Shown: positions 248 through 4,222 of the stretch, piece by piece
Layout of the letters: the number at the start of each line of letters is the position of its first letter
Numbering within the stretch: position 1 is the stretch's first letter
Source: Planctomycetota bacterium
GTDB lineage: Bacteria > Planctomycetota > SZUA-567 > H5-PLA8
Assembly (NCBI GenBank): GCA_038227875.1
Contig: JBBRPR010000007.1
Location: 128,001-192,000, forward strand
DNA length: 64,000 bases
Direction of reading: 5' to 3'
The notes under the pieces: model-generated
Told to the model about the DNA's origin: nothing
Database searches by the model: none
What the model saw: only the letters and a program-made list of their open reading frames with translations
Program-made: the position numbers and the translations under genes

Positions 248-1678
248 CTACATGTCTTCCAGCAGATGCCCCAGCTTGTTCTTCTTCGTCTTCAAATACC
301 TGGCGTTATGACTATGAGCCACCATCTCGATCGGAACGCGTTCGATAATCTCCAAACCGTAACCGCCGAGTCCTACAATCTTGCGCGGGTTGTTGGTCAA
401 CAGGCGGATCTTGCGGATGCCCAGGTCGACCAGCATTTGCGCGCCGATGCCGTAGCGGCGCAGGTCGGGCTTGAAGCCGAGTTCCTCGTTGGCCTGCACC
501 GTGTCGCGACCTCGCTCCTGCAGTTCATATGCCTTGAGTTTGTTGACGAGACCAATGCCGCGACCTTCCTGCCGCATATAGAGGATGGCCCCCTTCCCCG
601 CCTTCGCCACGGCGGCTTGCGCGGCGGCGAGTTGCTGGCCGCAATCGCAGCGCAGGCTGCCCAGGGCGTCGCCGGTCAGGCATTCGCTGTGGACGCGAAC
701 CAGGACGGGGGCCGTCTGAATCGTACCGGGCTTCAAATCGCCCATGGTCATCGCAAGATGGTGTTCGCCGGTGTCGCCCAGCGCCGACTCGTAGGCGAAG
801 AGCCGGAATTCACCGAAGCGTGTGGGCAGCGCAATTTCGGCGACGCGGTTGACCAGCTTCTCCGTGGCGCGGCGGTATTCGATCAGGTCGCGGATCGAAA
901 CGATTCGGATTTTGTGCTCGGCGGCGAAGAGCTCGAGATGGCTCAAGCGCGCCATGCTGCCGTCGTCGTTCATGATTTCGCAGATCACCGACGACGGATT
1001 CATTCCCGCCAGGCGGCAGAGGTCCACGCTGCCTTCCGTCTGGCCGGCGCGGACGAGCACCCCGCCGTCGCGGGCGCGGAGCGGAAACATGTGGCCGGGG
1101 CGCGCGAGATCTTCGGGGCCGCTGCGCGGATCGATGGCCGTTTTGATGGTGTGCGCGCGGTCGGCGGCGCTGATGCCGGTAGTCACGCCTTTTCGCGCCT
1201 CGATGGTGACGGTGAAGGCCGTGCCGAAGCGCGCGGTGTTGGCGTGCGTCTGGAGCGGAAGCTGGAGCTCATCGCAGCGCTTTTCGGTCAGCGAGAGGCA
1301 GATCAGTCCACCGCCGTACTTGCGCATGAAGTTGATCGCCGCCGGCGTGATCTTTTCCGCGGCGATGACCAGGTCGCCCTCGTTCTCGCGGTCTTCGTCG
1401 TCGACGAGGATGATCATCTTACCGTCGCGCAAATCGGCGAGCGCATCGGGGATCGAACAGAAGGGGGAATTTTGATCGGGATGCGGCTGGCCGGGCTGCA
1501 GGGGCTGCAAGGGCGGGTGCTTTTTGCCGTGTGTCGCCTTGCCGGCCTTCTTCCAACGCGCCGCAACGGCCGCGCTGGCGATCGAGCTGCGCTGATTGGG
1601 CGTCAGCGCTCGGGCCCGAGCGTCTCCGCCCTTGGCTGCCGCTTGCGACGATCCAAACCCTGCCTGCTTTTTGCGCAT
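248..1678 (-). CDS. ribBA: Bifunctional DHBP synthase / GTP cyclohydrolase II with a ~70-aa N-terminal extension
   Basis: [54 protein letters not shown] motifs; AAAGGAG RBS upstream of the extended ATG. Confidence 0.97.
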
Positions 1679-1698
1679 TCGATTTCTCCTTTGCCCTC

Positions 1699-1771
1699 AA
1701 TTTACCGACGCAGGCAAGAATGTCAAAATGCTTGCTGGAGCAAGTACGACGATACATGCCAGGCAAGAATG
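1699..1771 (-). promoter_or_regulatory. Sigma70-type promoter of ribBA overlapped by an operator-like GCAAG array
   Basis: TTGACA (1726-1721)-N16-TAAATT (1704-1699); exact 12-bp direct repeat CAGGCAAGAATG at 1711 and 1760; inverted repeat GCAAGAAT-N6-ATGCTTGC centred on the -35 box. Confidence 0.65.
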
Positions 1772-1933
1772 AGATCCACGAAAAGTGACCCAAAGCGGCT
1801 ATGGAGAATCAGCCAGACAGCGCGTCCTAAGCAATTTAATTTTGAGTTTTGATTTTTGATTTACTTCACAACGGCAGCAATTGGGAATTGTCGTTAGGTG
1901 ATGGCAACGACTCAATACAATCAACGCGGCAAT

Positions 1934-1964
1934 AAAAAAACGCGCCGCTTGCGCGGCGCGTTTT
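1934..1964 (-). terminator. Rho-independent terminator of the small lipoprotein gene
   Basis: 8-bp GC stem CGCGCCGC/GCGGCGCG, GCAA tetraloop, 7-U tract on the minus strand. Confidence 0.85.
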
Positions 1965-1987
1965 AATTCAAACTTTCAACGTCCAAA

Positions 1988-2122
1988 TTAGTTGGACGCG
2001 ACGGACGGCGAGTTGACGGTGCGGCGGTAGTTGTCGCTGTGACAAGAATCGCAGTGATCACCACAGCCAGCAGTCACGACCAAAGCGACGACGGCGGCCA
2101 AAAGAACGAGAGCTTTGCGCAT
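1988..2122 (-). CDS. 44-aa lipoprotein with a CxxCH motif (absent from the ORF track)
   Basis: MRKALVLLAAVVALVVTAG-CGDHCDSCHSDNYRRTVNSPSVASN*; GAGGAGG RBS; lipobox TAGC; own terminator. Confidence 0.85.
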   Translation of the reverse strand: MRKALVLLAAVVALVVTAGCGDHCDSCHSDNYRRTVNSPSVASN

Positions 2123-2339: not shown

Positions 2340-2684
2340 ATGGAGCCCGATCCCCCGAGGAAAATTCAGTTCCATCTCACCACCGCGCTGTTTGTCATGG
2401 TAGCGCTCGGCGTACTGACGCCATTCCTGCTGCGTTCGTTCCGCGTGTCCTTCCTGGACGGCGCGGCATTGGCGTATGCGTGCGCGCTGCCCATCCTGAT
2501 CGGCGCGCTGGAAGTCGAGTCCTACCTTCTGCGTCGCGCCGATCCCGACGCGAAATGGGAACGCCCACGCCAGGCCGCCACGCGGTTAATGGGCGTTTTG
2601 CTCTGTCTGGTTTTCGAATGGGCGGCGATCGGGCTATGGGCAATCTGCGTGGCGAAAGTCGTGGGTCCGGTCTTCCAGAAATAG
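2340..2684 (+). CDS. Small membrane protein, about 3 TM helices, unknown function
   Basis: Three hydrophobic stretches; fills the gap between neighbouring genes; start uncertain. Confidence 0.7.
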   Translation: MEPDPPRKIQFHLTTALFVMVALGVLTPFLLRSFRVSFLDGAALAYACALPILIGALEVESYLLRRADPDAKWERPRQAATRLMGVLLCLVFEWAAIGLWAICVAKVVGPVFQK

Positions 2685-2739
2685 TACGCCGAGGCAGGCA
2701 GATCCGCGATTCTGCTTTTCCCTTATTAAGGCTACACGT

Positions 2740-2781
2740 GGTAGCCCCGGCAGTTCATTTAAAGAGACTGCCGAGGCTACC
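2740..2781. repeat. Intergenic hairpin (REP-like or terminator) between convergent genes
   Basis: GGTAGCCCCGGCAGT / ACTGCCGAGGCTACC, 15-bp arms with one mismatch. Confidence 0.6.
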
Positions 2782-2818
2782 GTTACTTCGCGAATTCCGT
2801 GTTACGATGCGATTACGT

Positions 2819-4222
2819 TTACTTAATCTTCTTGTGGCCCGGGCGCTTGGCAGCCGCGTCCCAGCTCTTGCGCAGATCCTTCGGGTTGACCGTGCCGTAG
2901 CTCTTGCCGCTGCCGGGAACCAGCGTCTTCTTCGTGTCCAGGTTCGGCAGCGCGTCGCCGTGTCCTGCGATCAATTCATCGCACATTTCGACGATCTGGT
3001 CGAGCGTCAACGTAGCGGCTGTCAACGGATCGAACATCGCGGCCTGGTAGACGTGGTCGCGGCGGCCTTCCAGCGCGGCGCGGATGAACAGCTCATGCTG
3101 CGTGATGTGCGGCTGCATGTAACCGACCAACTGCGGCGGCAGTTCGCCGACGGTCGTGAACTGCAAGCCGGCGCGGTCGACCAGCGTCGGGACTTCGGCG
3201 ATGGCGCTGTCGGGCAGGTTGGAGATCGCGCCGTTGTTGCGCATGTTGCCGTAGACGACGCTGGGTTTGCCGGTGACCATCGAGTGGATGATCGTGCTGC
3301 CGTATTCGTGGCTCTTGCAGACGTTCATCTTCTCGTCGGACTTGCTGAACGTCTTCATCCGTTCGAATTCGTCGATGATGTTGTCGCAGCGGTAGAGGTA
3401 CTCGTCGATCGGCACGTCGTACTTCTTGAAGTGTTCCTCGCCGTGCGGGATGAAGTACGGGCAGTATTCGGCGTTGTGTTCGCTGGATTCGGTGATGAAG
3501 TAGCCGAGGCGCTTCATCAGTTCGAAGCGGACCTTGTTCTTCTGGTAGATCTCCGGGTTCTTCATCGCTTCGAACAGGCGCGGGTAAAGGTCAACGCCGT
3601 TCTTCTCGAGCTTCTGGTAGAAGGCCATGTGATTGATGCCGGCGCAGACGAACGAGATGTCTTCCGACTTCTCGCCGATGTAGCTCATCAACTGGTCGAG
3701 CGTGCCCTGGACGCTGTGACAGAGACCCACGGCCTGAATGTTGCTCGTCCGGGTGATCGTCTGCATGTTCATGGACATCGGGTTGGAATAGTTGAGCAGC
3801 GTGGCCTTGGGGCAGACCTGCATCATGTCCTTGACCAGACCCGAGAGCATCGGGAACGTGCGGAGCGCGCGGAAGAAGCCGCCGGGGCCGGTGGTGTCGG
3901 CGATGGTGAAGTTCAAGCCGTACTTGCGCGGAATTTCGAAGTCGACCAGCGTGCTGTCGAAGCCGCCGATCTGGACCATGTTGATCACGAAGTCGGCGCC
4001 GCGGAGCGCGTCCTTGCGGTCGAGGGTCGTTTCAATTTTGGGGCTGGCGCCGACGGCCTGAGCGACCTTGCGGCAGAGGTTCCCGCCGACTTCCAGTCGT
4101 GCCTTGTCGATGTCCATGTACGAGAACGTGGCGTTTTTGAATTCTGGAAAACCCAGAATGTCGCCGGTTAGATTTTTGGAGAACACGACGCTTCCTGCGC
4201 CGATCAGTGCAACTTTGATCAT
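2819..4222 (-). CDS. melA: NAD+/Mn2+-dependent family 4 glycoside hydrolase (alpha-galactosidase-like)
   Basis: IGAGS Rossmann motif, DTTGPGG, NYSNPM, GLCHS, GINHM, TESSEH; start set at MIKVAL. Confidence 0.9.
   Translation of the reverse strand: MIKVALIGAGSVVFSKNLTGDILGFPEFKNATFSYMDIDKARLEVGGNLCRKVAQAVGASPKIETTLDRKDALRGADFVINMVQIGGFDSTLVDFEIPRKYGLNFTIADTTGPGGFFRALRTFPMLSGLVKDMMQVCPKATLLNYSNPMSMNMQTITRTSNIQAVGLCHSVQGTLDQLMSYIGEKSEDISFVCAGINHMAFYQKLEKNGVDLYPRLFEAMKNPEIYQKNKVRFELMKRLGYFITESSEHNAEYCPYFIPHGEEHFKKYDVPIDEYLYRCDNIIDEFERMKTFSKSDEKMNVCKSHEYGSTIIHSMVTGKPSVVYGNMRNNGAISNLPDSAIAEVPTLVDRAGLQFTTVGELPPQLVGYMQPHITQHELFIRAALEGRRDHVYQAAMFDPLTAATLTLDQIVEMCDELIAGHGDALPNLDTKKTLVPGSGKSYGTVNPKDLRKSWDAAAKRPGHKKIK

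Follow-up and report, generated by a model that had tools for sequence, protein, structure and literature searches.

A planctomycete ribBA gene with a 5′ end very probably taken from a P63C-type gene, and possible autoregulation through the module it encodes

How does an enzyme of riboflavin synthesis come to begin with a module that its relatives lack, and to lie behind a promoter overlain by repeated short sites? The question is posed by ribBA in a 64,000 nt stretch of DNA (the window) from a Planctomycetota bacterium (GenBank assembly GCA_038227875.1, contig JBBRPR010000007.1, positions 128,001 to 192,000), where the coding sequence occupies 248..1678 on the minus strand. The answer to which comparison of sequences points is that the first ~52 codons, together with some 110 bp of regulatory DNA ahead of them, would be the 5′ end of a P63C-family gene (antirepressor-like, of phage or mobile-element kind), and that the Pro-rich N-terminal tail native to RibBA continues from them in frame. 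Capture of the ribBA 5′ end from a P63C-type gene is very probable. That the acquired module binds the sites upstream of ribBA is reasonably likely; that RibBA autoregulates today is a tentative proposition, a little short of an even chance. Considered as a whole, a chimeric ribBA front end with an autoregulating DNA-binding module is the best explanation, and it is evenly poised between being right and wrong.

The product, 476 amino acids in the list of open reading frames, is the only RibBA match in its own genome (G000; 9.34 Mb in 176 contigs, 88% complete with 4% contamination), and is 81% identical to the RibBA of the closest relative. It belongs with the bifunctional RibBA proteins, both catalytic domains being present in one chain above curated cut-offs: DHBP_synthase (PF00926) spans aa 78-268 (E 3e-85, 285 bits), GTP_cyclohydro2 (PF00925) spans aa 278-449 (E 5e-71, 238 bits), and the NCBIfam equivalog NF006803 is passed with 598.8 bits against a cut-off of 569. 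These two enzyme domains are all that Pfam finds in the 476 residues, the P63C domain (PF10546) not being detected there, and nothing in Pfam or NCBIfam matched aa 1-77. The N-terminal extension is 70 residues long and holds a module of the form GG.ARA..L....R..IA..AA.ARW. The module core, aa 16-44 (1547..1633, minus strand), is supported by a 60-sequence alignment, by a match to Phrog_2384 and by a structural model, and is predicted to form two helices.

The origin of this extension is indicated by the proteins that it resembles. RibBA aa 1-52 (codons at 1523..1678, minus strand; alignment, BLASTP and tblastn) align from Met1 with 14 P63C N-termini, and the likeness includes the KATHG that follows the module (consensus P.ATH.G). 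Over aa 1-47 the identity to one of them, L087, is 55%. BLASTP of the module against L136, a 342-aa P63C protein (PF10546, E 1e-17) from a metagenome scan, gives 26 of 40 identical residues (65%), with a ten-letter segment common to both. Since the homology runs from Met1 through KATHG, the breakpoint would lie near residues 52-58. What follows is the Pro/Gln-rich linker (1463..1522, minus strand), which is native: it is common to related RibBA proteins (..LAPGQPHPDHNSPFCS and similar), and DNA similarity to the closest relative begins there. When three P63C proteins were compared by tblastn with the own genome, only ribBA codons 1-52 matched (C7:129532-129678), one of the three from Met1 with 55% identity. 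A donor P63C gene still resident in the genome was sought and rejected: tblastn found none in this 88%-complete assembly, and a Pfam search also found none, in a run whose control matched nowhere.

The relatives of this ribBA provide the other half of the comparison. RibBA is present in 30 of 31 related genomes (a count that includes G017), and within the family its N-termini are short and variable, with a fast-evolving K/R-rich tail in most, often followed by a conserved Pro-rich linker (the tail of the closest relative, MKKKDASRKAPRRAGIPKLAPGQPHPDHNSPFCS, is an example). That such tails are decayed modules is ruled out by a hidden Markov model (HMM) of the module, which scores at most 1 bit for each of 12 tails. 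The module is likewise absent at E <= 0.01 from all 19 genomes of the order that were searched, and a GCAAGCA 7-mer is found upstream of none of 12 related ribBA genes. The first-pass annotation had stated that the module is no standard part of RibBA, and for these relatives (none of the twelve with the module, none with the 7-mer) that is correct. Aligned to the closest relative (G001), the DNA is alignable only from GCCCGGCCAGCCGCATCC, the codons for PGQPHPD. Since the relatives lack them and similarity starts at those codons, the promoter, Shine-Dalgarno sequence, module and site array are specific to this genome's ribBA. The relatives appear to be transcribed differently. In seven related loci (L002, L004-L009) a -10-like hexamer, resembling TATAAT, ends 6-7 nt ahead of the ATG, and its position suggests that these seven ribBA mRNAs are leaderless.

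The upstream region has a GC content of 45%, against 64% in the gene, and is bounded by the intrinsic terminator of an upstream small gene (1937..1964, minus strand). A sigma-70-like promoter on the minus strand (1699..1726; 10 of 12 matches) has TTGACA at 1726-1721 and TAAATT at 1704-1699, separated by 16 nt, with one CTTGC half-site in the spacer. It is the sole promoter-like site in 1500-2200, where shuffled sequence gives a mean of 0.4. Half-sites before ribBA are GCAAG at 1714, CTTGC at 1731, GCAAG at 1740, a CATGC variant at 1755 and GCAAG at 1763. In all, the 110 nt ahead of the gene contain four CTTGC/GCAAG cores, a single full GCAAGCA and a palindrome. The palindrome, TACTTGCTCCAGCAAGCA (1729..1746, minus strand), is directly upstream of the -35 box. 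An exact 12-bp direct repeat, CAGGCAAGAATG (repeat family D2), has one copy at 1711-1722 (CATTCTTGCCTG on the gene strand), where it overlaps the -35 box and spacer, and a second at 1760-1771, which together with the CATGC variant makes up the segment 1755..1771 (minus strand; read from the sequence and from a repeat search). The promoter, the five half-sites and the exact repeat are thus all where the first-pass annotation had placed them.

Within one genome such an array is rare but not overwhelmingly so. The 12-mer has three copies in the 9.34 Mb, two of them at ribBA, and the palindrome CTTGCTCCAGCAAG is present once; further copies of palindrome and 12-mer seem to be inside coding sequence, as judged by eye without a check of open reading frames. 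There are 34 clusters of at least four GCAAG/CTTGC within 70 bp, many of which are a repeat of REP-like (repetitive extragenic palindrome-like) kind. This palindromic repeat, AGCAAGGAGCAAGC-ATACGGCC-GCTTGCTCCTTGACAC, often after CGCTTGCGCG, occurs in at least 15 places of the own genome (for example C4:10262, C39:42514, C33:47694 and C26:45432) and explains many of its GCAAG-rich clusters. What makes the ribBA array more than chance is its match, across genomes, to the promoters of P63C genes.

That match was followed in several sets of genes. In the scan of 200 nt ahead of 15 module genes, L045, a locus from the phylum whose module heads a 357-aa P63C-domain protein (PF10546, E 4e-27), carries TACTTGCTACAGCAAGCA about 20 nt before its start, identical to the ribBA palindrome at 17 of 18 positions; the palindrome also aligns with TGCTTGCCCGGGCAAGCA of L087. 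The shared core, CTTGCTNCAGCAAG, is present at 64 distinct sites, spread over 54 of the 401 phylum genomes. Estimated from listed genome sizes this is about one per 30 Mb, and because the core is so rare, its occurrence before two of the 28 module places known in the phylum is very unlikely by chance. When genome contigs were queried with L045, 19 P63C loci from many phyla were recovered, 15 of them with the N-terminal module. Thirteen of the 14 with fixed starts have multiple sites within 160 nt upstream that read (A)TGCTTGC(A)/GCAAGCA(T) or nearly so, often as palindromes. (L091, outside those 14 and added later with an approximate start, has no such site.) P63C genes carry 1-5 (A)TGCTTGC(A)/GCAAGCA sites at their own promoters. 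Counted as the GCAAGCA/TGCTTGC 7-mer, there are 37 in the 2,480 nt upstream of 16 module-P63C genes and 10 in the remaining 57,448 nt, an 86-fold difference. L136 resembles ribBA in layout as well. Its promoter is TTGACA-N16-TATAAT, the TTGACA-N16 being as in ribBA, in a region with ACTTGCTC sites; two direct ATACTTGCTCG sites are upstream and one inverted copy is in the spacer. By sequence L136 appears to be a closer donor type than L045.

Phage genes extend the association. Eight phage P63C genes were examined among 64 matching phage records, and all six that bear the module have repeats at their own promoter: GCAAGCA twice before ST104 orf23; GCAAGCA four times, in a promoter that contains ATGCAAGCAT, in vB_EcoP-611R6; CAAGCA three times in Lodos; GCACGCA twice plus GCAAGCATG in Barco; and, accompanying variant modules, ACGTGCA three times before 933W L0095 and TAGATAT repeats in vB_E192a. 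P63C genes without the module (phages Javan484 and Si3, and bacterial L100) lack repeats in three of three cases. Overall, 26 P63C genes were compared with the module HMM and 23 match it; at least two CAAGCA/TGCTTG 6-mers are present in the 155 nt upstream of 15 of the 23 module-bearing genes and of none of the three without it (Fisher p = 0.063). Module and arrays travel together in P63C genes across many phyla and phages. The first-pass annotation had offered, as one of two possibilities, that a cassette of promoter, operators and module was captured from a mobile element. This is strongly supported, since N-terminus and array match those of P63C genes and neither module nor array is found in the twelve related ribBA genes. 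The captured DNA would have brought with it the TTGACA-N16-TAAATT promoter and the four CTTGC/GCAAG half-sites.

Two further features of the P63C genes deserve mention. In several (L095, L098, L211 of Barco, L210 of 933W, L103 and L087) the final array site runs into the start codon, as GCAAGCATG, ACGTGCATG or TGCTTGCATG, and the TATAAT of L136 is only 6 nt ahead of its ATG; the overlapping sites hint at very short or absent leaders and at control exerted exactly at the start. Module-P63C genes with arrays of their own are also found in or near the immunity regions of temperate phages: 933W L0095 (L210), ST104 orf23 (L216), which is between cI and gene 24, and the 611R6 gene (L221), beside arc/ant. 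All three are annotated as hypothetical. A search of the literature, which leaves out most subscription journals, found no publication on P63C-protein function, the N-terminal module or the arrays.

All this presupposes that the extension is real and is translated. The opposite reading, that the enzyme core is where translation begins or that the junction was created in assembly, draws on the state of the draft described above (its contig number, completeness and contamination), and it is very improbable indeed. A Shine-Dalgarno sequence, AAGGAG (1686..1691, minus strand; read from the sequence), is 7 nt ahead of the ATG. There is no other ATG before the core, and the sole alternative in-frame start is a TTG at codon 57, before which no AGGAG-like sequence was seen. 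Over codons 1-58, G+C at third codon positions reaches 0.76 in frame, the other two frames having 0.65 and 0.63. On these sequence features the ATG1 start of the extended protein is well supported, and the earlier proposal of an extended ATG served by a good ribosome-binding site stands. Every relative examined also has an N-terminal extension ahead of the SPF core. As for the junction, a separately built contig of 1,625 nt from the likely source run spans 1384-2300 with zero differences, but it is not independent, being derived from the same data. A 151-nt contig of depth 3 from a different study covers 1422-1572, and with it the junction. Of its three differences, one is synonymous and the other two, which share a codon, give H50R; the same study also has 1774-1923 at 95% identity. 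Though slender, the evidence of this contig is independent, and it speaks for a natural fusion that is read in frame. A metagenome scan from which 80 loci were kept yielded no other module-bearing RibBA among the six that reach the N-terminal part, its patterns having mostly caught unrelated RibBA cores.

What was acquired is a common mini-domain absent from Pfam and NCBIfam. RibBA aa 11-47 match the N-terminus of PHROG 2384, of function unknown (Phrog_2384, E 4.5e-6), and the 60-sequence module alignment has 13 columns that are invariant or nearly so, all of which RibBA keeps. The AlphaFold2 model from that alignment has helices at aa 9-24 and 27-45, with a block-mean pLDDT (predicted local distance difference test score) of 91-92 over aa 21-40 and an overall mean of 74, and is a confident prediction of a helical hairpin. 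A second copy in the own genome forms the C-terminus of a 92-aa protein on contig C140. With a profile from the two copies, the module was found in 25 of 401 phylum genomes, at 28 places, mostly in proteins of 75-110 aa; besides L045, one carrier has it at the head of a weak AbiEii-like protein. When 1.84 billion cluster representatives were searched with a 16-sequence profile, 15,227 matched at E <= 0.001, and 2,727 of them at E <= 1e-10. The top 150 of these profile matches are 57-209 aa long, many with 2-4 tandem modules. In P0002, P0005, P0008 and P0012 the tandem units read GG.ARA..L[ST]...R..IA..GG, KGG-like but with no Pfam match, and P0010 combines two modules with a Cro/C1 helix-turn-helix. 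The carriers bear out the statement in the first-pass annotation that P63C proteins begin with the motif and that small basic proteins have it too. Other searches were negative within their scope. Neither a word-indexed protein search with aa 1-60, among proteins of near length, nor one with aa 1-50, among longer ones, had a match at E <= 10; phages gave none in tblastn with aa 1-50, a PDB profile search gave only a chance match (E 0.22), and scores in the ESM Atlas were at most 0.86, which makes them leads only.

What might the module do at ribBA? The simplest reading of its association with the arrays is that it would be a small sequence-specific DNA-binding domain by which a P63C gene is autoregulated. 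In RibBA it could then act on the palindrome 1729-1746 flanking the -35 box and on the spacer at 1711-1722, with repression of the gene's own transcription as the result. DHBP synthase and GTP cyclohydrolase II form dimers. A RibBA dimer could hold two modules in the symmetry of the palindrome, an arrangement otherwise supplied by the P63C body. The suggestion, made in the first-pass annotation, that the enzyme represses its own promoter is plausible, in that it is consistent with the co-occurrence of module and array in P63C genes.

Several observations weigh against such a function. The half-sites at ribBA are degenerate, one being a perfect GCAAGCA 7-mer and the others the CTTGC core only. 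Eight of the 23 module-bearing P63C genes have fewer than two of the 6-mers, the contrast with module-less genes rests on three controls at the p value given, and at least the two phage controls closely follow a repressor gene and so may have no promoter of their own. At none of 30 other CTTGCTNCAGCAAG sites examined is the module nearby. The small stand-alone module proteins examined have no array upstream of their own genes. Foldseek found nothing in PDB that resembles the module model at E <= 10; the highest VIA-align score, Z 4.2, was to generic helical hairpins, and the Z of 3.9 to the DNA-binding STPR repeat is too weak to use. The DNA contacts of P63C proteins could lie outside the 52 residues kept in RibBA. 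Only a single genome and a single short contig show the fusion, and comparable sites are missing ahead of ribH, ribE and ribD (0-1 five-mers). (The notion that the palindrome alone marks module genes was considered separately and is ruled out by the same 30 module-free sites; a reversed-pattern control also occurred in many genomes.)

Some of these points are what would be expected if the front end were captured without its regulation being retained. Recombination with a mobile P63C-type gene would then have replaced the promoter, the promoter and Shine-Dalgarno sequence would be what matters, and the module and half-sites would be passengers tolerated on a tail that is variable in the family. 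Related RibBA tails do vary freely in length and sequence, because of which the extra 50 residues may be neutral, and the single perfect 7-mer at ribBA compares with 2-4 in most P63C genes. The narrow distribution of the fusion and the lack of sites at other rib genes also fit. Set against this, all 13 conserved module positions are intact, and the exact 12-bp repeat and four half-sites still bracket the -35 box and spacer, both of which are also compatible with a recent event. Capture without function is, on balance, somewhat unlikely.

The sites might alternatively be operators for a protein of a mobile element that acts in trans, the RibBA module being irrelevant to them. Candidates exist in the own genome, which encodes both the 92-aa module protein and an IS1-family-like transposase (insertion sequence type) with an N-terminal helix-turn-helix (Pfam DDE_Tnp_IS1, E 1e-7). 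They belong to one unit on contig C140 (L022/L106/L107): a module gene at 759-1037 (plus strand), a gene for an SDH Clp-like protease at 1034-2029 (minus strand) and the transposase gene at 2368-3207 (plus strand). A small module protein, a passenger gene and the IS1-family-like transposase recur together as a unit. Eighteen genomes of the phylum have the transposase, and in 10 of these, G000 with its C140 included, a small module gene is 0.1-2.7 kb upstream of the transposase gene on the same strand. The transposase gene is also a divergent neighbour of many P63C genes. The C140 transposase gene is preceded by TTGACA-ATGCTTAAGCGGGCAAGCAT, and related palindromes, ATGCTTGAGCGGTCAAGCAT, precede transposase genes of module-bearing elements. 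Yet arrays persist where the transposase does not: five genomes have a module-P63C gene with arrays and no adjacent transposase, and none of the five, one of which is 100% complete, has a transposase homologue at E <= 1e-5. The array-bearing phage P63C genes examined have no annotated transposase adjoining. Nor are the arrays the terminal inverted repeats of the IS1-like element, a candidate that was ruled out when no copy was found beyond the transposase stop in three loci. Control by such a trans-acting protein is improbable. As a separate observation, several small module genes have a conserved GGTAGTG..TCAGTTTGAA some 55 nt ahead of them, which may mark where an element ends.

If autoregulation by RibBA through its own module is nevertheless entertained, what would it mean for riboflavin synthesis? 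The first-pass annotation had noted that the predicted leader, at ~15 nt, is too short for a riboswitch for flavin mononucleotide (FMN), and had proposed a trigger-enzyme mode of riboflavin control. The FMN riboswitch (RF00050) is indeed not found in the window or in the 88%-complete genome, but of 121 genomes sampled from the phylum a single one has a match to RF00050 (control genomes with a match, 7 of 14), and its lack is therefore not evidence of anything special; absence is the norm in the phylum and lends no support to unusual control. (Locus L056, G125:C91:48984-52124, was noted with this survey.) The rib genes of G000 are spread over four contigs. A riboflavin regulon sharing the operator is ruled out, ribH, ribE and ribD having the 0-1 five-mers mentioned above, and it follows that there would be at most a self-contained ribBA loop. 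A flavin enzyme that doubles as DNA-binding regulator of riboflavin genes is described in the archaeal riboflavin kinase/regulator RbkR (PMC5397151). The likeness is that a flavin-metabolism enzyme acts as regulator in lineages without FMN riboswitches; the difference is that RbkR is a kinase controlling a regulon, whereas RibBA would control only itself, with a DNA-binding part from a mobile element.

By descent, the front end of RibBA appears to belong to P63C genes, and RibBA itself is not a P63C protein. Its first ~52 residues (module and ATH.G) and promoter array are homologous to those of P63C proteins (PF10546; such as 933W L0095 and ST104 orf23), but it has no P63C domain and they have no enzyme part. 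In architecture it recalls the trigger enzymes. BirA, PutA and NadR each combine a biosynthetic or catabolic enzyme with a small N-terminal DNA-binding part and have operators at their own promoters; their DNA-binding parts have helix-turn-helix or ribbon-helix-helix folds, are conserved across wide clades, and bind under proven control by effectors. RibBA is likewise an enzyme with a putative N-terminal DNA-binding part and candidate operators at its own promoter. It differs in that its module is an undescribed predicted two-helix unit, in that the fusion is in a single genome, and in that binding is putative here. That RibBA is a true trigger enzyme, its module drawn from a large undescribed two-helix DNA-binding class that reads (A)TGCTTGC(A)-type half-sites, and its binding as a dimer tuned by GTP, ribulose-5-phosphate or flavin, is an unlikely extension of the autoregulatory reading.

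Promoter capture or replacement by mobile DNA is familiar from the hybrid and outward-reading promoters of insertion sequences. Here too a housekeeping gene would have gained a promoter from mobile DNA, its relatives using a different, apparently leaderless one, but ribBA gained in addition a coding 5′ end in frame, and so a new protein architecture. The capture event is well documented in this instance, and is unusual. If the proposal is right, it is a clean natural case in which a core biosynthetic gene has adopted, in frame, what stands at the regulatory front of a mobile gene (promoter, repeated sites and protein module), and it illustrates a route by which enzyme and regulator could become fused, as in BirA or PutA, in a single step. 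It would also point to a very common uncharacterised mini-domain that heads the P63C proteins of many phyla and temperate phages, paired with a conserved site array, the two making up a directly testable protein/DNA pair, and would offer one lineage-specific answer on riboflavin control in a phylum with almost no FMN riboswitches. Were the module inert, the finding would shrink to a curiosity of promoter replacement.

Two minor matters concern resemblances. The KGG repeat stress proteins (PF10685) have short Gly-Gly-led basic helical units that can be in tandem, and they are not known to be linked to DNA sites. The module is similar in its Gly-Gly-led basic helical units and in its tandem occurrence, 2-4 times in P0002, P0005 and P0012. 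It differs in that the Pfam KGG model has no match to RibBA aa 1-78 (E <= 10) or to seven module proteins (E <= 1), those with tandem modules among them. Finally, there is a borderline Rfam match 1 kb from ribBA to int-alpA RNA, which is usually tied to integrase or alpA genes of mobile elements; no integrase is in view, and the match, at window positions 2674-2751 on the minus strand, has 36.0 bits against a gathering score of 35.8 (E 9e-4).

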